Assembly: GCA_963755915.1 (NCBI GenBank)
Contig: CAVWLP010000002.1
Span: 1,984,001-2,048,000 of the forward strand
Length of the DNA stretch: 64,000 bases
Direction of reading: 5' to 3'
Origin: an uncultured Phycisphaerales bacterium
Lineage (GTDB): Bacteria > Planctomycetota > Phycisphaerae > Tepidisphaerales > Tepidisphaeraceae
Positions 1,777-51,039 of this stretch are shown here, in pieces. Every line of letters begins with the position of its first letter. Position 1 is the stretch's first letter. The position numbers and the translations under genes are program-made. The notes beneath the pieces were generated by a model, which saw only the letters and a list, made by a program, of their open reading frames with translations, searched no databases and was not told the DNA's origin.

Positions 1777-2196
1777 TCAAACGGTGAGCGCGCAGCCCAG
1801 GCTGAGAAGAGTGCGCGGAGGCGGGCCCTCTGTCTGCTTTGACGCACGAACCGAGGTCCTCGGCGCCGCAGCAAGGGTCAAAAAGCAGGGCAGATGCGAA
1901 ATGAACAGATGAAGCGGTGCGATTTGCGCCGAGGCGGTCGTTGTTACGACCACACCGGATCCGACCATCGGGCAATTCTGCGGCATCATCGGGCGTGGTT
2001 GCTGAGATTTATTCGAACCACACGGCATTTTGCCGGCGTTAATTCCGCAGCAACAGCAGCATTTGCAATGGGCCGCCGCGCACTCCGGGATGGATGCGCA
2101 TTCAATCGGCGAGCAGGCCGTTACTGGCGACCCGCCTGCCAGAAATATCCCGGCAATCAGACACGAAATAATCTGTTGGAATCTCAAGGCTACCAT
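1777..2196 (-). CDS. Small Cys-rich exported/leader protein upstream of the cus operon
   Basis: Hydrophobic N-terminus, CKCCCCC cluster, C-terminal GPPPRTLLSLGCALTV. The ATG at 2196 sits 4 nt after a -10 box. Confidence 0.6.
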   Translation of the reverse strand: MVALRFQQIISCLIAGIFLAGGSPVTACSPIECASIPECAAAHCKCCCCCGINAGKMPCGSNKSQQPRPMMPQNCPMVGSGVVVTTTASAQIAPLHLFISHLPCFLTLAAAPRTSVRASKQTEGPPPRTLLSLGCALTV

Positions 2197-2200
2197 GATC

Positions 2201-2229
2201 AAACTACGCCCCAAACGCCATATCGTCAA
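2201..2229 (-). promoter_or_regulatory. Sigma70-type promoter (TTGACG-17 nt-TAGTTT) for the Cys-rich gene/cus operon, probably leaderless
   Basis: Minus strand reads TTGACG atatggcgtttggggcg TAGTTT gatc ATG. An inverted repeat GCAAT-ata-ATTGC lies at 2245-2257. Confidence 0.55.
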
Positions 2230-2259
2230 GAAATCAAAGGCAATGCAATATAATTGCTT

Positions 2260-2386
2260 CCCCAACGAACGCCACATCACCCTCGCCTGGGGCCGCGATT
2301 ACGGCGACGTAAGCCCGGTCCGCGGCGTCGTGCTGGGCGGCGCGGGGCATCATATCGTGGTGTCGGTGGATATGGCGGCGGTTTAA
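2260..2386 (+). pseudogene. 3' remnant of a transglutaminase-family gene
   Basis: Translates PNERHITLAWGRDYGDVSPVRGVVLGGAGHHIVVSVDMAAV*, the characteristic C-terminus of bacterial transglutaminase-like proteins. No matching 5' part is present. Confidence 0.75.
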
Positions 2387-2410
2387 AAAGGATCGATCGC
2401 GCCCTCTTAT

Positions 2411-2554
2411 CCCCTCCCCTGGTATTCCGGGGGATTGGGGGCTGAGCGAAGCGAAGTCCCGACCTGTCGGGAGCAAGGGTGGGGGCGTCTGCCGCTCTAC
2501 TTTCCACTCTCTCGCACAGCGCGGGGTGGGGGCTCTCCTGCTCTACTTTCTACT
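2411..2554. repeat. REP-like palindromic element plus an imperfect direct repeat
   Basis: cccctcccctggtattccggggga...gggtggggg resembles the element at 42320-42361. Internal palindrome tcccgac-ct-gtcggga. The unit gggtgggggc...gctctactttc.act is repeated at 2477-2508 and 2524-2554. Confidence 0.5.
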
Positions 2555-2700
2555 GTTTACATACTCGGAGGAAACAAAGGGGTCAGGACCCTTAAACCAT
2601 AAAATTATTCACATGTAGCCCATCGGGAAACTTTAAGGTGTCAGGAGCCCCCCATAATCAATTGAAACTGGCCGTTTCTGGCACCAGCGAAAACCAACGC

Positions 2701-3507
2701 TCAATCCCCTCCCAACATCCGCACAATCATTCCCCGCCGTCCCCGCGTCCTCTCCATCTCGACCCGTCCCGCAAGCTCAAGAAGTCGCAACGCTCCGTTC
2801 GTCGCCAGCCGGCTCGCACCAATCCGACGTGAAATCTCCATCGCCCCGTCGACCTCGCCCCCTTCAGGCCATTCCGCCACAACCGACGTTGCAATATCCC
2901 CAAGTGTTGACCGACCAGCCAGCGCGGGGTTGTGCCGGGCGACCCAGAAGACAGGGCGAATCGCATCGTCCTTTATCCGCATCGTCTCGTCGGACAACCA
3001 CTGCCCCCACTTTTTTGAAAGCGCGCTTGCACTCTGCTCCGCCTGACGCCGCAGCACCGCCATGCCGTTCTCGGCATCAGAAAGGGGCCGGTCAACTTGC
3101 GATATCGACCCGCGGCACACGTCGATCGCGTATTTGAGGTTAATTCCCCCGGCCCACTCCAGCATCAGCCCAAGCACGGGCCGAGTTTCGACCTCCAGCT
3201 CATCATGCACCAGCCGCGCCAACCGGTGCCCGGCCACGTACGAACTGAACCGATGCAGCCAGCTCGCCGCCAGCAGGAACAGGCGCACGTTCCCAGGCGC
3301 GAGTCGAGCGGTATCCAACAACAACCGCTCAACGTCGGGCGTCTGCCTGGCCGCTGCGACGTTAAACATCACGCCCAGCCGCGCCCAAGCGGCGGCGACC
3401 TGCGCCTCCGTCGCGCTCCTCGTCTTCTTGGTGCTTGTCGTCATCGCAGTCATCGTCCACCTTACAATCTTCATCGTTAGCGCAATCGCCTGCGCTACTG
3501 CTCCCAT
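2701..3507 (-). CDS. Hypothetical protein with a probable C-terminal HTH; partner of the upstream nucleotidyltransferase
   Basis: 268-aa ORF overlapping the upstream stop. C-terminal GAMEISRRIGASRLATNGALRLLELAGRV resembles a winged helix. The true start may be slightly downstream. Confidence 0.65.
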   Translation of the reverse strand: MGAVAQAIALTMKIVRWTMTAMTTSTKKTRSATEAQVAAAWARLGVMFNVAAARQTPDVERLLLDTARLAPGNVRLFLLAASWLHRFSSYVAGHRLARLVHDELEVETRPVLGLMLEWAGGINLKYAIDVCRGSISQVDRPLSDAENGMAVLRRQAEQSASALSKKWGQWLSDETMRIKDDAIRPVFWVARHNPALAGRSTLGDIATSVVAEWPEGGEVDGAMEISRRIGASRLATNGALRLLELAGRVEMERTRGRRGMIVRMLGGD

Positions 3508-4019
3508 TCGTCGATTCGTTCCAGCGTTCGCAAGACTCGTCCGTCGTCGCCTATTGCCGCGATGTGTTCGCGCACGACTTTGCGTTCCTCAGGCGTCGGA
3601 GAAATATCAAGCAGATCCTCAATATCCTGAGGGCGGCCTGCATAGAACTTCATCGAGATCAGGTCGAGCCGACTGGCGGCATATACCGTCAATCTCCCGA
3701 AATGGCCCACCTCAACGCGTCGGTCCTTCCATGTCGGCAGCAACGTCTCCCGATAAAGGCCCGCATCGCCATTCAGCCAGTCGTTGGGAAGACCCATTTC
3801 CCGACCGACAAGGGAAGCCGCCTCATACAGTGCTTCGTCCTCCCGGCTGGGAACAATGTTGAGCACATCAACATCCGCCGTCGTCCGCTCAGGACGGAGG
3901 AGGTCGCTAAGCACCGCCGCTGCTCCTCCGACCACAAGCACCTCCATTTCCGGACCGTCGCCCAGCCGCCGGCCGGTAGCCTCTAGCGCCGCTCGGATTT
4001 GCTTGCCGCCCAGTCCCAT
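3495..4019 (-). CDS. DUF6036-like / AbiEii-like nucleotidyltransferase
   Basis: VLVVGGAA...RTTADVDV (GG plus DxD NTase motif), WLN, and LISMKFYAGRPQDIEDL (K...R..D..D) signatures. Confidence 0.8.
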   Translation of the reverse strand: MGLGGKQIRAALEATGRRLGDGPEMEVLVVGGAAAVLSDLLRPERTTADVDVLNIVPSREDEALYEAASLVGREMGLPNDWLNGDAGLYRETLLPTWKDRRVEVGHFGRLTVYAASRLDLISMKFYAGRPQDIEDLLDISPTPEERKVVREHIAAIGDDGRVLRTLERIDEWEQ

Positions 4020-4279
4020 TAGAAAAAGCTCCACATTTGTGTACTATATTACTATACGTATCGTCTATTAACAACGTCTCACTAAACATGCGATGCCGTG
4101 AAGCAAACCTCAAATCCCAAAGCCTCCCTCAAAGCAAATTCGCGACAAACGGGGCGCTTTTTCCCGCGCGAACCGCTTCTCGCCGGACAAATCACCCCCA
4201 ACCCCTTCACCCACCAGCACATACACCACGCCAATAAGCTAGCACTCACTAATCAAATTCAAAAAAGCGCTCCGTTTTG

Positions 4280-5771
4280 TTAATCCCGTTCGGCACGCAG
4301 GCTTCATCGGAGCATTCCAAAGCTGTGGAGGACGCGAAACAATTGAAGCTTAGATACTTTTACTTTCCCCTGCTGCACGCCGGCGTCCGCAAGAGCGCAG
4401 CATCAACCGCGAGGTCTCCGCGGCGACGGATTCCCCTTCAGTTTACTCCCAGTTTTTTCAAGGCCTCCGCTCTTGCCCTCAGCTTAATCCCGGTGTTATC
4501 CGGCTTGTTCAGGAATCGAAGCACGTCCTGTTCCTCGGCCAGCCCCAGCAGATACCAGCCGATCATGTTCCGCATCGCCTTGTTCGGCTTCCTGCCGCTG
4601 ATCAGCTGAATCAGCACGCAGACGATCAGCGCGCAGTGGATTTGGATGTCGATCCCCTCCTGGCGTTGGCTCAGCAGGTGACGCATGCCCAGCAGTTGCT
4701 TGAAGATCCGGAAGAACAACTCAACGGTGTAGCGGTACAGATAAATCAGGGCGATCAATTCCGCCGGCAGGTCCAGCAGGTTCGTGTACAGGATGATCAG
4801 GTCCGTCGGCTTGTTGCCGCTGCGCGTGCGGCGCGGATGGGGTTTCACCTGCACTTCCACCCGTCGCACCACCCTATCCGCCGCCGTCTCCAGGCCGTCG
4901 AGTTTCACCAGCGCGTCTCGCACCACGCCGCCGTCCAATGCTTCCTGTGAAAGCAATCGTTCTTCAAACAGCTCAAACACCGAGTTTTCCGCGGCCCGCA
5001 TCACAAAGGAGCTTTGCGCCGCGGCGATGTCCGCAAAGAGGCTCCGGTCGGCGTAGCCGCCGTCTCCTACATAGCACCGTCCTGCTTCCAGGCTGCGCCG
5101 CAGGACGTTGTTTTCACGGTTGGCCCCCGCGTTGCGAGCGCCAGTGCGGTCGAGGCGATGGACTTTGAACGTCTCCAGATCGAATTGAACGTGCAAACGC
5201 CAGCCATAGACCGCTTTCCCGTCCCGGGAGGTGTTGTAGTGCGCATCGATGCCGCAAGCGGATTTGGCCAGCCGACTCAGCGCCGTCAGCACCGTCCCGT
5301 CGACCAGCGTGATCGCCTGCCCAAAGTCCGCAAGACGCGGATCGGGCGCCTGGGGCAGTTCCCCCGCCAATTCCTCAATCAGCGGCGTCAAACGCCCCGG
5401 CTCGAACACCCGAACCGATTCAGAGAAACTGCCCACGGAAAAACGCTTAATTCCCAGCGCCTTGGCCACCTTGGGCAGTTCAGCAACCTCCTGAAGATCC
5501 CGCAGGGATTGGATCAGCGGATTCCAGGTGTAAAGCAAAACCAGCTTGCAATAATCGTCGAAGTGAAGCTGGCGGTTCCCGGCTCGATCCCGCTCACAGC
5601 CCACATCCCGCAGCGTGGGCAGCAGCGCGAAGACGCGCCGCAGATGTCCGAGGCACAGGATCTCTTTTTCCTTCAGTCTTGCCTGCACGTCCGGCAGCAT
5701 GCCATAAAAAGATCAAAGGCGCAATCTCAATATCTTGCTGCTTGCGCGAACCCCGTGCCGAACGGGATTAA
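4280..5771 (-). mobile_element. IS4-family insertion sequence, complete
   Basis: Perfect 18-bp terminal inverted repeats ttaatcccgttcggcacg (4280-4297) and cgtgccgaacgggattaa (5754-5771). Flanking direct repeat cgttttg (4273-4279 and 5772-5778). Internal DDE transposase. Confidence 0.92.
4438..5700 (-). CDS. IS4-family transposase
   Basis: Motifs LVDGT, YVGDGGY and YLYRYTVELFFRIFKQ (Y-x2-R-x3-E-x6-K signature). Confidence 0.93.
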   Translation of the reverse strand: MLPDVQARLKEKEILCLGHLRRVFALLPTLRDVGCERDRAGNRQLHFDDYCKLVLLYTWNPLIQSLRDLQEVAELPKVAKALGIKRFSVGSFSESVRVFEPGRLTPLIEELAGELPQAPDPRLADFGQAITLVDGTVLTALSRLAKSACGIDAHYNTSRDGKAVYGWRLHVQFDLETFKVHRLDRTGARNAGANRENNVLRRSLEAGRCYVGDGGYADRSLFADIAAAQSSFVMRAAENSVFELFEERLLSQEALDGGVVRDALVKLDGLETAADRVVRRVEVQVKPHPRRTRSGNKPTDLIILYTNLLDLPAELIALIYLYRYTVELFFRIFKQLLGMRHLLSQRQEGIDIQIHCALIVCVLIQLISGRKPNKAMRNMIGWYLLGLAEEQDVLRFLNKPDNTGIKLRARAEALKKLGVN

Positions 5772-15367: not shown

Positions 15368-16918
15368 GAATGCCATTCGCTTAGCTCGTAACTCCGCGCC
15401 GGCACTGCATTTACTGGATTTGCGCAAGACGTAGCCTCCTGTCAGAATGGTGGTGTCTAGATCACCAACCAACAGGAGGCCACGGATGGCTATCATCGCT
15501 TCAACCCTCGCTCGAATCAAATCCGATCCGCTCAACTGCATCGGAGGCAAACAACGCGTCAACGAGCACTTTGCCCAGGCCGGTCACGTCTGGCGGCAAC
15601 GGTTGCTCGATCCGGCGACGACACTGACGCTGTTCATCCTCCAGGTACTGCACGGCAATACCGCCATCACTCACCTGCGGCAACTGAGTCGCATCACCGT
15701 GGCCGCGGCCAGTTATTGCCAGGCCCGGGCTCGCTTGCCGCTGGAGGCGCTGGCGCAACTGGTTGAGAATGTCTCTCGCAACGCCATTGTCTCCATTCAA
15801 TCGCAGGCGGAGGATGGCGCGAAACCCTCGCCGGGTCCGGCCTCCTGGCTGGGACGACGCGTGATCCTCTGTGACGGCACCTCCGTTACGACGCCGGACG
15901 CGGCGCCCCTGCAGCAGCGCTGGCCACAGCCCTCCACGCAGAAACCGGGATGCGGGCTTCCAATGATTAAGCTGCTGGGAATGCTGGACCTGGCCACCGG
16001 CATGATTCTGCATCTGACGATGATGTCCATGAATTGCCATGAGATGGGCCAACTCGTCGGACTGCACGCGGCGCTGCAGCCGCAAGACGTGCTACTGGCG
16101 GATCGGGGGTTCTGCTCGTTCGTTCACCTGGCTTTGCTCTCGGTTTTTCCGATGGATGCGGTGTTCCGGATGCATCAGAACATGATCGTGGATTTCACAA
16201 CCGGCCGGCGTCATGCCCCCCGGCGCGGCAAGAAAAGCAAACGCGGCAAGCCCAAGTCCAAATTCATCCGGAAGCTGGGCCAGGAAGATCAGATTGTCCA
16301 ATGGCTCAGGCCGCGGGTGGCTCCCAAATGGATCGGCGCATCGCTCTTCGCCGGCCTGGCCCCGACACTGCTGGTGCGGGAGCTTCGCTACCGCATTACC
16401 GTGCGCGGCCGGCGCACCCGTGTCGTGACCATCGCCACCACGTTGCTGGACCCGCTGCGATATCCCAAGCGACGCATCGCCGAACTCTATGGACTGCGCT
16501 GGGAGGTCGAGACCAACTTCCGCCATCTCAAGATCACGATGGGAATGCACCGGCTCAAGTGCAAAAGCGCCCAGGGCGTGCTCAAGGAACTCATGATCTT
16601 CGTGCTGGTCTACAACCTGGTCCGCGCGGCGATGGTGCTGGTGGCGCTTCGGCAACGCGCCAACGATCCCAATCGCATCAGCTTCATCGATGCGCTACGG
16701 TGGCTGCAGGAGAGAATCGATCACCTCTGTCTCACAGGTGTCCCCGAATTGCCCGGCGCCGGCCGTCGATCTGATCGTCAACCGACTGCGTGCGGAGCGT
16801 TGGTGTCCGCGCGTCACAAAGCGGCGGAAAAAGCAATGCGATCTGATGACCAAATCGCGGCGCGAGTACGCAGAACCGCCAATGGAGACACAACTTGCGG
16901 GCTAAGCGAATGGCATTC
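15368..16918 (+). mobile_element. IS4-family insertion sequence, complete
   Basis: Terminal IR gaatgccattcgcttagc is perfect over 18 bp (22/24 when extended). An 11-bp target duplication gatcatgggtc lies at 15357-15367 and 16919-16929. Confidence 0.95.
15486..16905 (+). CDS. IS4-family transposase (one frameshift near 16750)
   Basis: CDGTS, LADRGF and YGLRWEVETNFRHLK motifs. The C-terminus ...PRVTKRRKK...QLAG* is in the 16690 frame and its stop lies inside the right IR. RBS caggagg. Confidence 0.9.
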
Positions 16919-17212
16919 GATCATGGGTCCTTTTTGCGCCTCGGCTTTTCCGGACCTTCATGCCGATGTCCAATCACCGCTTCTGTCGCGTTTCGCGATT
17001 CGCCTGACGCAATCTCTTGCGCACATAAGTCCCATTTTTACCGGATAATGTCTACAACTATTCTCTTTGCCTGCCCTCAAATCCTGAGTTAAAATCGGGG
17101 ATATGGGGATGGGATGGCGGGATTTGAAAATGTTTCGCGGAATAATCGCAACGAAATTCTATAAATCTCCGCTTCGCGAAGTGTTAAATTTGTCCCAAGT
17201 GAAGATCGATTT

Positions 17213-45974: not shown

Positions 45975-46219
45975 GGTGGCCGTGCTTGTATCAGGCGGTG
46001 AAACGCCGGTAAAGGTCATCAGGCCCGAGCCGCCGAGGCGCGGTACAATGTCGACTGATGAAACGCATCCGCCGACAGGTTTTCAACGTGCTTGCGGCCA
46101 TTTCGCTGTTGCTCTTTGCGGGTCTTGTCGGCGATAGGGTTTATATCTTCAGACGCCCTGTCGCTTTGCCTCCGCCACCTCCTCCCACCATGACAACGAC
46201 CAATGTGAACGGTGTCTGA

Positions 46220-46489
46220 GTATTCAACTATCAAGAGACATCACTCGTCGCCGTTCGGCCATTCTTCCACGTATTGGGATGGCGCATTCAGGTGGGCATA
46301 GCATTCATTTCGACCATAGCGCTCCCCCTCTGCTGGATCGTGGTGCGATACCGTGAAGCGCGAGCCATTCGTAATCTTCCGGGCTCATGTCGAAACTGTG
46401 GCTACGATCTCCGTGCCACGCCGGATCGTTGCCCGGAGTGCGGCGCGGTCCCGCCGAAAAGAGAAAGTGATTTCGAACTGACCCGCTAG
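46220..46489 (+). pseudogene. 3' part of a membrane + Zn-ribbon (CGYDLRATPDRCPECG) family gene
   Basis: TM helix followed by CRNCGYDLRATPDRCPECG. An in-frame stop at 46217 cuts off the 5' part. Confidence 0.75.
46467..46489 (-). repeat. IS1-like terminal inverted repeat, degenerate copy 1
   Basis: gtgatttcgaactgacccgctag; 19/23 identical to 47950-47972. Confidence 0.6.
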
Positions 46490-46608
46490 GACGTCGCGAA
46501 ACGTGCACCCCTGCGGGGCCGGGGTTTTGAAGGAAGAGGGATTCCAAGGCCGGCAGGACCCTTAAAATTGTGGCTCGTATCCCCGGCGGTTCACTCGAGT
46601 CATCGAGA

Positions 46609-46646: not shown

Positions 46647-46925
46647 ATGATCAGAAGCTTTAAGCATCGCGGTCTCAGGAAGCTGTTTGAGCGCGACGAG
46701 AAGCGGGGAATCCGGCAGGATTTGCTGGAAACTGTCGAGGACATTCTCACTCGCCTGGATGCCGCCACGGGACCGCAAGGCTTGAATCTTCCCGGCTATC
46801 GCCTGCATCCGCTCAAGGGCGATCTAAAAGGTTTCTGGTCGGTGACAGTTCGGGCGAACTGGCGGATCATTTTCCGATTCGAAGGAGAAGACGCCTTTGA
46901 CGTTGAATTGACGGACTATCATTGA
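46647..46925 (+). CDS. higB: HigB (RelE/ParE superfamily) toxin
   Basis: [10 protein letters not shown]...[31 protein letters not shown]...DYH. Confidence 0.95.
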
Positions 46926-46938
46926 AAGGAGAATCCCC

Positions 46939-47241
46939 ATGCCGATGAAAAACCCACCCCATCCGGGTCGAAGCATCCGAAACACCTGCCTTGAGCCTTT
47001 GGGGTTGTCCGTTACTGAGGGGGCCAAGGCGCTTGGGGTGACGCGGCAGGCGCTCAACAATGTCATCAATGGCAAGTCTGGAATCAGCCCGGAAATGGCC
47101 ATTCGACTCACCAAAGCGTTCGGCAGCACGGCGGAGACCTGGTTGCAAATGCAGCTTGCGTATGACCTGGCGCAGGCCAGGAAGCGTGAGGATAAAATTA
47201 AGGTACGCCGTCACCGGACGGATGAAGTTCGCGCCGCTTAG
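46939..47241 (+). CDS. higA: HigA HTH antitoxin
   Basis: [10 protein letters not shown]...[17 protein letters not shown]...ISPEMAIRL...[10 protein letters not shown]. Confidence 0.95.
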
Positions 47242-47306
47242 AAAATGTTTCATAAGCTCGCGCGGCCACTGCTCGCGGCTGGCGATATCACTCATGGGTC
47301 GCTTGA

Positions 47307-47363
47307 GCCGGCATGGCCGATTATGTTTGGGAGATTGAGGAATTGATCGGGCTTCTGGATTAA
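47307..47363 (+). pseudogene. Extreme C-terminal remnant of an IS1-like transposase
   Basis: Reads AGMADYVWEIEELIGLLD*, matching the recalled tail (TPAM.AG..DH.W...E...LL) of IS1-like DDE transposases. An in-frame stop lies just upstream. Confidence 0.65.
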
Positions 47364-47383
47364 CACCCTGTTGGAATGTCAGT

Positions 47384-47953
47384 GTGAAACGCCGCTTATT
47401 CAATGTGATGGCGGGACTGTCGCTGGTGCTTGCGTTCGTTGTATGCATTCAGTGGTATCGCGGCTACCAAGAACAGGATCAATTGTCGATCCGGCGTTAT
47501 GTCGGCGTGCGCGAACATCCGACCCAAGAGCAATTCGGTGTTGTTTGCTGCCAAGGGGCGTTCTGGCTCGAAGCAAGCTGGCAGCGGTCCGACACAATAA
47601 ACGCTGCGCCTTCATTGCTTCTGAATTGGCAGCAGCAGTTGGGCCTTGGCTGGCGCGTGCGCATCGGAACCTACTCCAACCCCTTCTATCCTTCGTTGTT
47701 TCGCACCGGCTGGATTCACAGATTTGGCTTTCACGCTTCCCACGACAACCGTGCCGTCGATGTCGTGATACCCATGTGGTTTTGTGCATGTTGCACACTC
47801 GCGTTGCCCATAGCGTGGATACTCTTTGCTCGAAGCCGTGTCCTTCGAGTGCATTACCCTGGTGCAAAGCCCTGCCCGCAGTGTGGGTATGATCTTCGCG
47901 CCACGCCCGATCGCTGTCCGGAGTGTGGAAAATCCGTCGAAAAAACTATTTGA
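47384..47953 (+). CDS. Two-TM membrane protein with a C-terminal Zn-ribbon (CGYDLRATPDRCPECG family)
   Basis: MKRRLFN..AGLSLVL...W.R.Y N-terminus, variable middle, IPMW TM helix, CPQCGYDLRATPDRCPECG. Confidence 0.88.
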   Translation: MKRRLFNVMAGLSLVLAFVVCIQWYRGYQEQDQLSIRRYVGVREHPTQEQFGVVCCQGAFWLEASWQRSDTINAAPSLLLNWQQQLGLGWRVRIGTYSNPFYPSLFRTGWIHRFGFHASHDNRAVDVVIPMWFCACCTLALPIAWILFARSRVLRVHYPGAKPCPQCGYDLRATPDRCPECGKSVEKTI

Positions 47954-47973
47954 TTTCAAACTGACCCACTACC
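47950..47973 (-). repeat. IS1-like terminal inverted repeat (GGTAGTGGGTCAGTTTGAAATC on the minus strand)
   Basis: ttgatttcaaactgacccactacc; the reverse complement begins GGTAGTG, fitting the IS1-family GGnnnTG end. Confidence 0.7.
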
Positions 47974-48305
47974 GAAATTTCGGGAGACATGACCAGTCGT
48001 TGGCCCCTAAGTCGGGGACCACGGTTCTTGGACGGCACGAAACGCGCACCGCAGCGTGGGTAGGCGATACGCTTTGGGGGGTTGCGGCTAAAACGGGGAG
48101 GGGGATGTATCGTCGTTGTGGTCGCCGATTTGGAACGCCTATGCGTGAGAGTCGCTTCGCAAGTTTTTCGGCTATTTTTAGAAACCCTCACTTTTTCCAC
48201 GCTCCCGACTTCGTTATACTACGCGAACTTACTCACGTCATTCATGGCCAAAGTTCCATTTAGGATTAATCAAGCGGGGCTGACACCAAAGTTCACGGAG
48301 GATAT

Positions 48306-48958: not shown

Positions 48959-49093
48959 TTTAACCGCCAAGACGCCATCAATGCGAAGAAATGCGTTCAA
49001 ACCACGGATTTCACGGATGACGCGGATTTCAAATTCAATCCGTGAAATCCGTGTAATCCGTGGTTCTCTTTTTCTTCGCGCTTGGCGGTTAAA
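48959..49093. repeat. Nested palindromic (REP-like) elements
   Basis: Outer arms tttaaccgccaag / cttggcggttaaa (13 bp perfect). Inner arms of three 9-nt units: aaccacggatttcacggatgacgcggatt / aatccgtgaaatccgtgtaatccgtggtt. Confidence 0.85.
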
Positions 49094-49146
49094 GGCTTTC
49101 GGTCATCAGGTGAGGCTGACCGACTAAGGCGGTACAATTTGCGCCG

Positions 49147-49746
49147 ATGAAACGCTTCTGCCGATGGGTGTTTAATCTTTTGACCCTTCTGTCGCTGCTG
49201 CTTTGTCTGGCGATGGGGGCGGTTTGGATCCGGAGTTACTTCGCTTTTTCCCAACTTGTTGAAGGCCACCATTACAGGATGATTGACGAAAAAACATTGC
49301 GCTGTTCGATTTTCCAGCTCTATCTGTCGAAAGGGGCGTTTCAATACGGAAACGCCTGGTACGACTACAAGGATAAATTTCTCATCCAGGCGATGTTGCC
49401 GGCCGGGAAATCATCCTGGCAATTTTCCCACTCCAATGTCGGCGGAGTTTTGTATATCCCTCCGCCGAAGGGATCGATCGCTGGAGTTGCGATTTCATTT
49501 ACACTTCCCGTGCCGGCGAGGGGGCAAGTCGCACAGGTCGACGCGCGGCTGCCGTATTGGGTGTTGGTGATTGCCTTTGCATTTTTGCCATTCGTTTGGA
49601 TCGCGCGATTCGCTCGTCAAAGGGGGCGAGATCGGCTGAAAGCCGGAGGCTGCTGCGTCCGTTGCGGGTATGACCTACGCGCCACGGCCGACCGATGCCC
49701 GGAGTGCGGGAATATTCCGGCGAAAACGAAAGTAATTTCAGTCTAA
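49147..49746 (+). CDS. Two-TM membrane protein with a C-terminal Zn-ribbon (CGYDLRATPDRCPECG family)
   Basis: MKRFCRWVFNLLTLLSLLLC...WIRSY, variable middle, LPYW TM helix, CVRCGYDLRATADRCPECG. TACAAT lies just upstream of the ATG. Confidence 0.88.
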   Translation: MKRFCRWVFNLLTLLSLLLCLAMGAVWIRSYFAFSQLVEGHHYRMIDEKTLRCSIFQLYLSKGAFQYGNAWYDYKDKFLIQAMLPAGKSSWQFSHSNVGGVLYIPPPKGSIAGVAISFTLPVPARGQVAQVDARLPYWVLVIAFAFLPFVWIARFARQRGRDRLKAGGCCVRCGYDLRATADRCPECGNIPAKTKVISV

Positions 49747-49754
49747 CCCACTGC
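49732..49754 (-). repeat. IS1-like terminal inverted repeat, degenerate copy 3
   Basis: gtaatttcagtctaacccactgc; 17/23 identical to 47950-47972; supplies the gene's stop codon. Confidence 0.5.
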
Positions 49755-51039
49755 TCCGTTGGTAGGTCGATCCCACCGACGAGATCAAAAACCCCCCAAA
49801 CAGGATGAAAATCGCCCACAGCGGAAGAAGATAACGATCGGCAATGCTTGTCACGAGATAGGGCGCCACCGAAAGGAATCCCGCCAGCGCCAGCCAAAGT
49901 GCCTTGCTACCGCGCCTCCAGGCAAGGACCAATCCGCCGATACCGAGCACTGAGGTGAGCGCCGCCAATGCGACCTTGTCGATCATGATGCCGTCGCGCA
50001 CCACGCCCGTTAGAAACGGCGGAACTCCCCCGCGAAGAGGAAGCGGTTCGCCAATCAATGCGTAGAGCGCGCGCTTCGAACACAACCGAAAAAAGCCGAG
50101 CGGGTCGGATCGCACTCGCTGCACAAAGGCCACCCGGCATTCGCGGAAATATTCCATTTCACCGGCGCGGATCAGCAATTCCCTCTGTGCCGGATTGACG
50201 AACGGGTGCTGGGCCAGGGTGGCGTCATCGATCAATCCCGATGCGCCGTTTCGATTGCCGAGCCAGAGTTCAAATTCGGCTCCTCCGCGCACGTACATGA
50301 GCCGCCGAAACTCGATCGCGTTGCGCACGGTCCACGGCGCCAGCACCAGACAGAAGACGCCGACCGACAAAGCAGTCGCATTGAAGCGTCGAGAGATCGG
50401 CTGGATCCGGACGGTGCGCCAGAGGATCAGCGGGTACGCGAAAACATAGCCGGCATTGATCAAAGACAGCACCCCCAAGCCGGCGGCTATGGTGGCGACG
50501 GAAGCCGGCCGGGTCGAGCGCTGAACCGCGACCAGAATCCAGATGAAAAGCGCCAGCGCTGGATAGGCGTCCCAGTATTGTGACATATAATATAAAAATG
50601 TGGGATGAATGATGAGCAATCCCGCGGCGATCCATCCGGCCGCGGGAGAAAAACAAGCGGCTCCCAAAACCCGTATGCCCGCCACCACTGCGGCAAAACA
50701 GCCGGCGTTAAGGAGCATAAGCGAGGTCGTCGCGGCTGGCGTGCGGATGCCGGATGCGCGGTAGATAACTGCCATCAGCCAGGGATAAATCGGCGGGCTC
50801 CAGCTCGTGGGCGCGGGATGGTTGGAGGGATCCATTGGGCTGCCGAAACCTTCGCCCCGCGCCAAATGAATCGCGATATTATTTTCTTCGGCGAACGGAG
50901 GAAACCGCTGATAATCGCGGCCCACCTGCACACCGGCGCCCCAGCAACCGGCGATCAGAAAAACCCAAATGTCCCGAATTCCGAGCCGCGATTTGATGCG
51001 GCCGGGCGAATTTAGTGCTGGTGAATCCAGATCGCCCAT
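49738..51039 (-). CDS. GT-C fold (ArnT/GT39-like) membrane glycosyltransferase
   Basis: Multi-TM; PPIYPWL, PWTVRN, LWLGN and RYLLP motifs. Confidence 0.7.
   Translation of the reverse strand: MGDLDSPALNSPGRIKSRLGIRDIWVFLIAGCWGAGVQVGRDYQRFPPFAEENNIAIHLARGEGFGSPMDPSNHPAPTSWSPPIYPWLMAVIYRASGIRTPAATTSLMLLNAGCFAAVVAGIRVLGAACFSPAAGWIAAGLLIIHPTFLYYMSQYWDAYPALALFIWILVAVQRSTRPASVATIAAGLGVLSLINAGYVFAYPLILWRTVRIQPISRRFNATALSVGVFCLVLAPWTVRNAIEFRRLMYVRGGAEFELWLGNRNGASGLIDDATLAQHPFVNPAQRELLIRAGEMEYFRECRVAFVQRVRSDPLGFFRLCSKRALYALIGEPLPLRGGVPPFLTGVVRDGIMIDKVALAALTSVLGIGGLVLAWRRGSKALWLALAGFLSVAPYLVTSIADRYLLPLWAIFILFGGFLISSVGSTYQRSSGLD

Follow-up and report, generated by a model that had tools for sequence, protein, structure and literature searches.

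A probable fossil right end of an IS1-family transporter insertion sequence with a zinc-ribbon gene in a Phycisphaerales genome

Background

In 64,000 nucleotides of the genome of an uncultured Phycisphaerales bacterium (GenBank assembly GCA_963755915.1, contig CAVWLP010000002.1, positions 1,984,001 to 2,048,000; this whole stretch is called the window below), a gene for a putative membrane zinc-ribbon protein lies between a very short reading frame and a short repeat, at positions 47307 to 47973. What kind of structure is this? The initial annotation, made from the DNA sequence alone, took it for the right-hand 670 bp or so of a transporter insertion sequence (tIS) that has lost its transposase. 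According to passages in PMC7986276, PMC9330008 and 10.1101/2021.05.26.445724, tIS are elements resembling insertion sequences (ISs) with passenger genes inside their repeats. Our analysis supports this interpretation: with a probability of about 0.8, window 47307 to 47973 represents the right end of an IS1-family tIS in fossil form. Four lines of evidence carry this conclusion: the match of the short frame to a transposase profile, the identity of the repeat (21 of 21 nucleotides) with the ends of a complete element, the recurrence of the same gene order at other loci and the position of cargo genes in two complete relatives. Related loci and plasmid elements are designated by L numbers and individual proteins by P numbers.

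Structure of the unit

The unit comprises four parts, which are listed with the evidence for each.

47307 to 47363, + strand: IS1-family transposase remnant, made up of the 18 terminal codons (AGMADYVWEIEELIGLLD) and the TAA stop (transposase hidden Markov model (HMM), nhmmer and full-length proteins with the same tail; homology ends at the TGA at 47304 to 47306).
47364 to 47383, + strand: 20-nt spacer between transposase stop and passenger start, with a degenerate -10-like box, TGGAAT, at 47372 to 47377 (junction alignment and nhmmer).
47384 to 47953, + strand: intact 189-codon passenger gene, starting with GTG (open reading frame (ORF), family search, alignment and AlphaFold 2 (AF2) model).
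47954 to 47973, no strand assigned: right terminal inverted repeat, outside-in GGTAGTGGGTCAGTTTGAAA (unique in the window, no mismatch to the consensus, equal to the left (IRL) and right (IRR) inverted repeats of the plasmid element L082).

The short frame, which had not been annotated as a gene, reads as first described. Positions 47307 to 47360 of the + strand give the peptide AGMADYVWEIEELIGLLD, followed by TAA at 47361 to 47363, 20 nt before the 47384 gene, and the frame is bounded upstream by an in-frame TGA at 47304 to 47306. It had been likened, from a sequence motif, to the C-terminal tail of IS1-like transposases. The motif proved correct. An HMM was built from 12 full-length IS1-family transposases, with the window sequence excluded, and compared with the six-frame translation of the window, cut at its stops into 2,027 pieces. 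The piece 47307 to 47360 ranked first (E value 0.033, 10.5 bits; runner-up, E value 12) and aligned from end to end with positions 257 to 274 of the 274 in the model. Homology to IS1 transposases of the aspartate-aspartate-glutamate (DDE) type is confined in this unit to these 18 codons, and the catalytic part is absent from the window.

The identity of the transposase was reached through related loci. One of these (L031) retains a longer remnant, with a frame of 63 amino acids (aa), and this retrieved 14 proteins, nine of which carry the name 'IS1 family transposase' in a source. With the HMM match, these proteins answer the objection that the peptide might have no similarity to transposase C-termini. 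The full-length IS1-family transposases of Tepidisphaeraceae and Planctomycetota (274 to 277 aa) end in ...TPAMAAGLSKTVWEIEDLLKLID (also given as ...RVTPAMAAGLSKTVWEIEDLLKLID and ...AGLSKTVWEIEDLLKLID), and the distance from their AG dipeptide to the stop is 18 residues, the same as in the window tail. Among eight transposases that were fetched, the C-terminus is ...TPAM(A/E)AGLSK(T/S)VWEIEDLLKLID in six, ...KLI in one and ...VWEISDLLNILEADISN in one (P0164); full-length proteins ending in ..KLID include P0151, P0156, P0158, P0159 and P0162. The stop after ..LID in six of the eight planctomycete-type proteins is the point at which the remnants also stop and the cargo segment begins. The gathering score of the Pfam family DDE_Tnp_IS1 (PF03400, 24.1) was passed by two of four full-length proteins (P0164, 33.7 bits; the transposase of L081, 32.3 bits). 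Each of the four had the NCBIfam model transpos_IS1 (NF033558) as its best match, with scores under the cut-off (53 to 65 versus 100 bits), and these transposases thus constitute a distant IS1 subgroup. The tail copies of L011 and L031 differ in six of 18 codons, all synonymously, which implies that the tails were coding until recently.

The passenger gene starts with the GTG at 47384, 20 nt past the TAA of the transposase tail, and stops with the TGA at 47951 to 47953. The AF2 model of its product (predicted local distance difference test score, 89.6) has a helix at residues 2 to 26, a beta-rich domain at 31 to 130, a helix at 131 to 156 and then a C-terminal zinc ribbon (CxxCGYDLRATPDRCPECG). 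The protein is accordingly predicted to be a two-helix membrane zinc-ribbon protein, with an N-terminal transmembrane helix and a second helix. The family alignment displays the same plan, in which a variable middle separates the N-terminal helix (MKRRLFN..LSLLL) from the second helix and the motif CxxCGYDLRA....CPECG is invariant. The family is very large, with 19,853 cluster representatives (50% identity clusters) at E<=1e-3 and 1,060 at E<=1e-10. The closest relatives are 91% (P0165) and 80% identical and, where relatives are named, almost all are called 'hypothetical protein'. No Pfam or NCBIfam family matched the passenger above cut-off, a fold search of the PDB with the model gave no relative (best template modelling score, 0.18), and tblastn against plasmids gave no match. 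Among the papers listed by a literature search on Planctomycetes zinc-ribbon transmembrane paralogues, none dealt with this gene family.

Directly after the passenger stop comes TTTCAAACTGACCCACTACC (47954 to 47973). No second copy of the repeat GATTTCAAACTGACCCACTACC exists in the window with up to three mismatches allowed, and none is expected by chance. The repeat had initially been placed at 47950 to 47973; the repeat itself is confirmed, with bounds that were slightly generous, since the conserved core is 47954 to 47973. Read outside-in (47973 to 47954), the right end is GGTAGTGGGTCAGTTTGAAA and fits the GGnnnTG form. An AT-rich near-palindrome frequently borders the repeat on its outer side (window 47972 to 47983, CCGAAATTTCGG; L011, CAATTTTCGG; L056, CAATATTCGG; also L034, L022 and L035), which may reflect a target-site preference.

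Complete elements on alphaproteobacterial plasmids

A tblastn search of plasmids with the planctomycete-type transposase P0151 gave 18 records, seven of them with at least 80% coverage. Three were examined, and each holds a complete element.

L081, Acidiphilium multivorum plasmid NZ_CP041717.1, 767 to 3400, 2,634 bp: left end outside-in GGTAGTGTCTCAGTTTGAAA, 8-bp duplication AAGCCGAG.
L082, Mesorhizobium loti plasmid p_1, CP050295.1, 296 to 3665, 3,370 bp: left end outside-in GGTAGTGGGTCAGTTTGAAAT, 8-bp duplication CGCTGGTG.
L083, Hoeflea sp. IMCC20628 plasmid NZ_CP011481.1, 55 to 4278, 4,224 bp: left end outside-in GGTAGTGTCTCAGTTTGAAAT, 8-bp duplication GATGATTG.

The limits of the L081 element are fixed by the empty site in the sister plasmid pACRY02 (L084), and its right end reads ...TTTCAAACTGAGACATTACC. 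None of the plasmid gene tables examined lists a mobile-element feature for these elements. Full-length relatives bounded by the GGTAGTG repeat, which the initial annotation had named as a check, therefore exist, all three with 8-bp duplications. Both ends of L082 are GGTAGTGGGTCAGTTTGAAAT, identical over 21 nt to window 47973 to 47953 (ATTTCAAACTGACCCACTACC on the forward strand). The window repeat agrees with the IRL of L081 in 18 of 22 positions and is also nearly identical to the ends of L083.

The complete elements carry other genes: a ClpP-like SDH protease in L081 and a protein with an XRE-type helix-turn-helix (HTH) and an IrrE-peptidase part in L082 and L083. Between the transposase and the right repeat lie a hydrophobic ORF of 77 codons in L082 and two ORFs (60 and 201 aa) in L083, the last of which terminates in ..LNSN, the stop codon falling within the repeat. 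In L081 it is the transposase that extends into the repeat, with the C-terminus ..KEEISN, and P0164 ends ..ADISN. The expectation of full-length transposases followed by a passenger gene and the same repeat was thus borne out in part: the cargo slot was found in L082 and L083, and a copy with a zinc-ribbon passenger was not among the plasmid elements examined and the related loci listed.

Recurrence of the tail-gene-repeat order

We compared the window with 80 loci, kept from at least 565 relatives in at least 614 stretches when genome contigs were scanned with the family alignment. The loci derive mostly from metagenome-assembled genomes of Phycisphaerae/Tepidisphaerales, at about 30% identity, and the genome of the window is not among them. 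The window and these loci together provide a sample of 111 family genes.

A tblastn search with the window peptide identified similar tails in five of the 80 loci: L002, L011 (three copies), L022, L031 and L050. Six of the seven copies stand 20 to 85 nt before a family gene; the seventh (L011, 3189 to 3242) precedes a different gene. The order of tail, TACAAT box, zinc-ribbon gene and repeat recurs in these five Phycisphaerae loci at four independent sites, and the neighbours are unrelated at tail-bearing sites other than L022/L031. Given this shared order in L002, L011, L022/L031 and L050, and gene ends that are read in the frame of the repeat, tail-gene-repeat is a recurrent structure matching the complete elements. 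Such gene ends are ..EMISN (L050), ..ETISN (L035), ..EIISN (L022), ..IISI (L056), ..TISS (L011) and ..KVISV (the 49147 gene of the window), each followed by the stop.

At up to two mismatches the repeat consensus has nine matches in 625 kb (window and 80 loci) and none when the sequences are reversed as a control. Of the nine, seven adjoin the stop of a zinc-ribbon family gene in right-end orientation; the other two are in L048, 357 nt after a family gene, and in L079, as a solitary left-oriented end. At up to four mismatches in 18 positions the repeat follows nine of the 111 family genes versus none of 2,000 random windows, and it is present in five of seven genes with a true tail versus four of 104 without (Fisher p 1.9e-5). 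The L079 end (1901 to 1920, GGTAGTCGTTCAGTTTGAAA) is of IS1 type, has one mismatch to the consensus and no transposase homology behind it.

The junction between tail and gene is also conserved. In most units a GCGCGGTACAAT box stands behind the tail stop and the start codon (ATG/GTG AAA CG.) follows 6 to 9 nt later; TGGAAT (47372 to 47377) of the present unit is homologous to this box. At up to one mismatch the box precedes nine of the 111 family genes versus seven of 2,000 random windows. The TACAAT box may be the -10 element of a near-leaderless transcript. A junction DNA profile (nhmmer) made from seven tail-to-start junctions, all from other genomes, matches the window at three places only: 47307 to 47391 (E value 2.9e-9), 49108 to 49155 (8.3e-6) and 46032 to 46065 (4.3e-5). 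As all three precede the three family genes of the window, the three units are fossils of the same kind.

Two of the loci deserve separate mention. L011 contains, at 1790 to 4530, a head-to-tail array of four zinc-ribbon genes and one unrelated 160-aa gene (3267 to 3749). The latter has the same setting (tail, TATAAT box, gene and a repeat-like end at 3838 to 3857), which suggests that the cargo slot is exchangeable. The junctions of this array at about 2249 to 2290 and 2540 to 2580 resemble recombination between repeat and tail end. In L050, an ORF of 141 aa (3472 to 3897) directly before the tail remnant has no Pfam family at E<=1e-4; only its C-terminal sequence looks like that of an HTH-type antitoxin.

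Other units and neighbouring genes in the window

The window has three zinc-ribbon family genes, at 47384 to 47953, 49147 to 49746 and 46058 to 46489 (broken). The present unit is the second of three, and the other two, together with the gene pair that precedes it, are as follows.

46032 to 46490, + strand: sister unit 1, with a junction remnant (junction profile, E value 4.3e-5), TACAAT at 46044 to 46049, a broken zinc-ribbon gene and a degenerate right repeat.
46647 to 47241, + strand: HigB-like toxin gene (46647 to 46925; PF05015, E value 5.1e-17) and HTH_3 antitoxin gene (46939 to 47241; PF01381, E value 1.5e-11).
49108 to 49755, + strand: sister unit 3, with a tail end (junction profile, E value 8.3e-6), TACAAT at 49133 to 49138, an intact zinc-ribbon gene (49147 to 49746) and a decayed repeat (49736 to 49755).

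One in-frame TGA (46217 to 46219) splits the gene of unit 1 (46058 to 46489) into ORFs at 46058 to 46219 and 46274 to 46489; the gene is probably a pseudogene. Its right repeat (46471 to 46490) has four mismatches in 18 positions and is read by the gene end in a shifted frame (..SDFELTR before the stop). Unit 3 retains about the last five codons of the tail (..VRLTD, TAA at 49125 to 49127), its gene ends ..KVISV, and its repeat differs from that of unit 2 in five of 20 positions. Unit 2 keeps the longest tail of the three.

The HigBA-like pair occupies the presumed place of the lost transposase body and left repeat and is not part of the IS remnant. The string GGTACAAT...TGAAAC was considered as a left repeat and rejected: agreement is limited to GGTA and TGAAA, with variable spacing. 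Upstream of unit 3 a hairpin of CACGGATTTCACGGAT-type repeats (48983 to 49079) resembles hairpins of repeats that follow genes in L071; Rfam returned for it only a sub-threshold plant microRNA match (24.8 versus 95 bits). A family scan and the HMM search detected no IS1-type transposase in the 64 kb. Two DDE_Tnp_1 (IS4/IS5-type) transposase genes, at 4438 to 5697 (- strand) and 15447 to 17045 (+ strand), are unrelated to the IS1 remnants.

Proposed origin of the unit

The intact element would have encoded, in one ORF, a DDE transposase some 275 aa long that recognises repeats of about 20 nt, GGTAGTG(G/T)(G/C)TCAGTTTGAAA. The enzyme would move the whole segment and generate an 8-bp target duplication of the type seen in the relatives. 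Cargo would lie inside the repeats, with one slot between the transposase stop and the right repeat, and the last ORF of the element would often end on repeat-encoded codons and the stop (..ISN).

What remains of this in the window would be 18 transposase codons, the 20-nt spacer, the cargo gene of 189 codons and the right repeat. We infer that the left repeat and about 256 transposase codons were lost where the HigBA module now stands, and the unit would thus be unable to move by itself. The cargo gene may be transcribed from the -10-like TACAAT box 6 to 9 nt before the start codon; the need for a promoter region at this position would account for the retention of a short transposase tail in every fossil. 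Progressive deletion to such a functional limit would be the simplest account of tails of 15 to 37 codons.

Alternative explanations

A number of observations weigh against the interpretation as the fossil end of a tIS. Taken alone, the window peptide is weak evidence. Read through its stop as X (20 and 34 aa), it matched no family in Pfam or NCBIfam, the peptide being too short for such scans; a word-based protein search with a 41-aa read-through gave one candidate and no match, and tblastn with four transposases gave nothing in the window at E<=0.1. The window has neither a left repeat nor a target duplication, for which reason a past insertion cannot be demonstrated directly in it. Recurrence is also reduced by the synteny of L022 and L031, which count as one event. 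The repeat is absent from 102 of the 111 family genes and a repeat-type C-terminus occurs in one of 150 family representatives; most members of the family are therefore not IS cargo today. No full-length element with a zinc-ribbon passenger is among the 80 loci listed, where tblastn with the four transposases gave only tails of 22 to 37 aa. The left limits of tail homology all fall 15 to 37 codons from the stop, which random deletion alone would not predict. Finally, a sigma-70 consensus scan found no promoter at the units: the candidate promoter consists of the conserved -10-like box only, and in the present unit (47307 to 47973) this box is degenerate.

How well do other explanations accommodate the data? 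The narrow range of tail lengths would be expected if the transposase made truncated units directly (in one-ended or abortive copying, for instance, with the right repeat as the anchor) instead of their arising by deletion after insertion. All seven locus tails and that of the window fall in this range, units with a well-kept tail keep the gene and mostly the repeat too, the transposase body is kept in none of the repeat-bearing units of 81 sequences, and several such units stand head to tail in L011. However, we know of no mechanism of this type for IS1-type DDE elements, the left limits vary between units and there are no recognisable target duplications. Tandem arrays can also be obtained by unequal crossing-over (the L011 junctions at 2249 to 2290 and 2540 to 2580 look like recombination joints), and promoter selection with a deletion bias explains the truncation pattern without a new mechanism. 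We therefore regard direct truncation as unlikely. The frequent lack of the repeat in the family, many members of which stand in plain tandem arrays, could instead mean that the zinc-ribbon gene is a resident that was never cargo and that tail and right repeat stem from separate IS1 insertions on either side. This would require two insertions, with loss of the right repeat and C-terminal extension of the first element, at four or more independent sites. The zinc-ribbon genes, moreover, enter the repeat in the reading frame that the L081 transposase uses there, and complete relatives carry genes in that slot, which makes a resident gene very unlikely.

Slightly less probable still is a non-autonomous cassette with both repeats, similar to a miniature inverted-repeat transposable element (MITE) or a mobile insertion cassette (MIC) and mobilisable by a full-length IS1 copy elsewhere in the genome. 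A weak left-repeat-like string (14 of 20 positions) does occur on the other strand at 47370 to 47389, and L056 has a left-oriented match with four mismatches (3826 to 3845) about 380 bp before its right repeat. Left-repeat matches with six mismatches are nevertheless at chance level (41 observed versus 36 in the control), the string at 47370 to 47389 lies downstream of the tail and would exclude it from the element, and the L056 flanks have no target duplication. Nor is there an IS1-type transposase in the window. In the window and the 80 loci, no left-oriented repeat with up to four mismatches lies upstream of any tail or near the window unit, and the point at which homology ends on the left varies from locus to locus; the unit was therefore not classed as a MITE or MIC. 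There is, lastly, a negligible probability that a spurious short frame simply lies beside a chance repeat. The frame has only 18 codons and the family libraries gave no match, but this explanation is refuted by the profile searches and the 21 of 21 identical nucleotides of the repeat. The fossil right end of an IS1-family tIS thus remains the preferred explanation.

Implications

This explanation accounts for three conserved flanks around hypothetical genes in the window. It also provides an annotation rule for further fossils: a frame of 18 to 37 codons ending ..VWEIE(E/D)L..L(I/L)D and a stop, a TACAAT box, a gene and ..CAAACTGACCCACTACC. IS1-family elements can, accordingly, be tIS, with cargo on either side of the transposase and a right repeat that supplies the stop codon of the last ORF. 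In linking a mobile element to a large uncharacterised protein family of Planctomycetota, it gives a handle on the spread of part of that family.

A more far-reaching proposal is a long shot. A rhizobial plasmid and a planctomycete chromosome share one 21-nt end, and the IS1-type tIS might be a vehicle that crosses phyla and whose cargo slot is exchangeable. In Planctomycetota this slot would repeatedly have taken up, spread and fossilised members of the zinc-ribbon family, the tail being kept as a cargo promoter and the cassettes multiplying to tandem arrays by recombination between tail and repeat. If true, the element would be a main driver of the expansion of the zinc-ribbon family, possibly via right-end-anchored truncation by the transposase.

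Relation to known elements

IS1-family elements, as classified in ISfinder, encode their DDE transposase in a single ORF, have GGnnnTG-type ends and make target duplications of 8 to 9 bp. Of these features, GGTAGTG ends are seen in the window and its relatives, and 8-bp duplications in L081, L082 and L083. The classical IS1 of Escherichia coli is 768 bp long, uses two frames and has no cargo. ISfinder also includes a subgroup of long single-ORF IS1 elements, the ISMhu11 group, whose length is said to reach about 4.6 kb; our literature search found no text with that name.

The closest counterpart of the unit is L082, which shares with it the 21-nt identical ends, a transposase tail ..TPAMAAGVSDRLWEVADIVALVE... 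and a small ORF between the transposase and the right repeat. Unlike the window unit, L082 is complete (3,370 bp), carries upstream cargo that includes an HTH/IrrE-like protein and resides in an alphaproteobacterial host. The ORF downstream of its transposase has no relationship to the zinc-ribbon family, and the transposase continues about 20 residues past the planctomycete stop point. L081 and L083 resemble the unit in their GGTAGTG... repeats. Cargo follows the transposase in L083, and in both elements the last ORF ends inside the right repeat (a cargo gene in L083, the transposase in L081), but they have other cargo, no zinc-ribbon gene and no GCGCGGTACAAT box after the transposase stop.

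Our literature search on the IS1 family and passenger genes found no description of an IS1 tIS, and a passage of the TnCentral preprint (10.1101/2021.05.26.445724) restricts tIS, as then recognised, to the IS1595 and IS66 families. The tIS of these two families are alike in carrying passengers within the repeats, whereas their transposases belong to families other than IS1. The present unit is probably a further IS1-family tIS, with new cargo.

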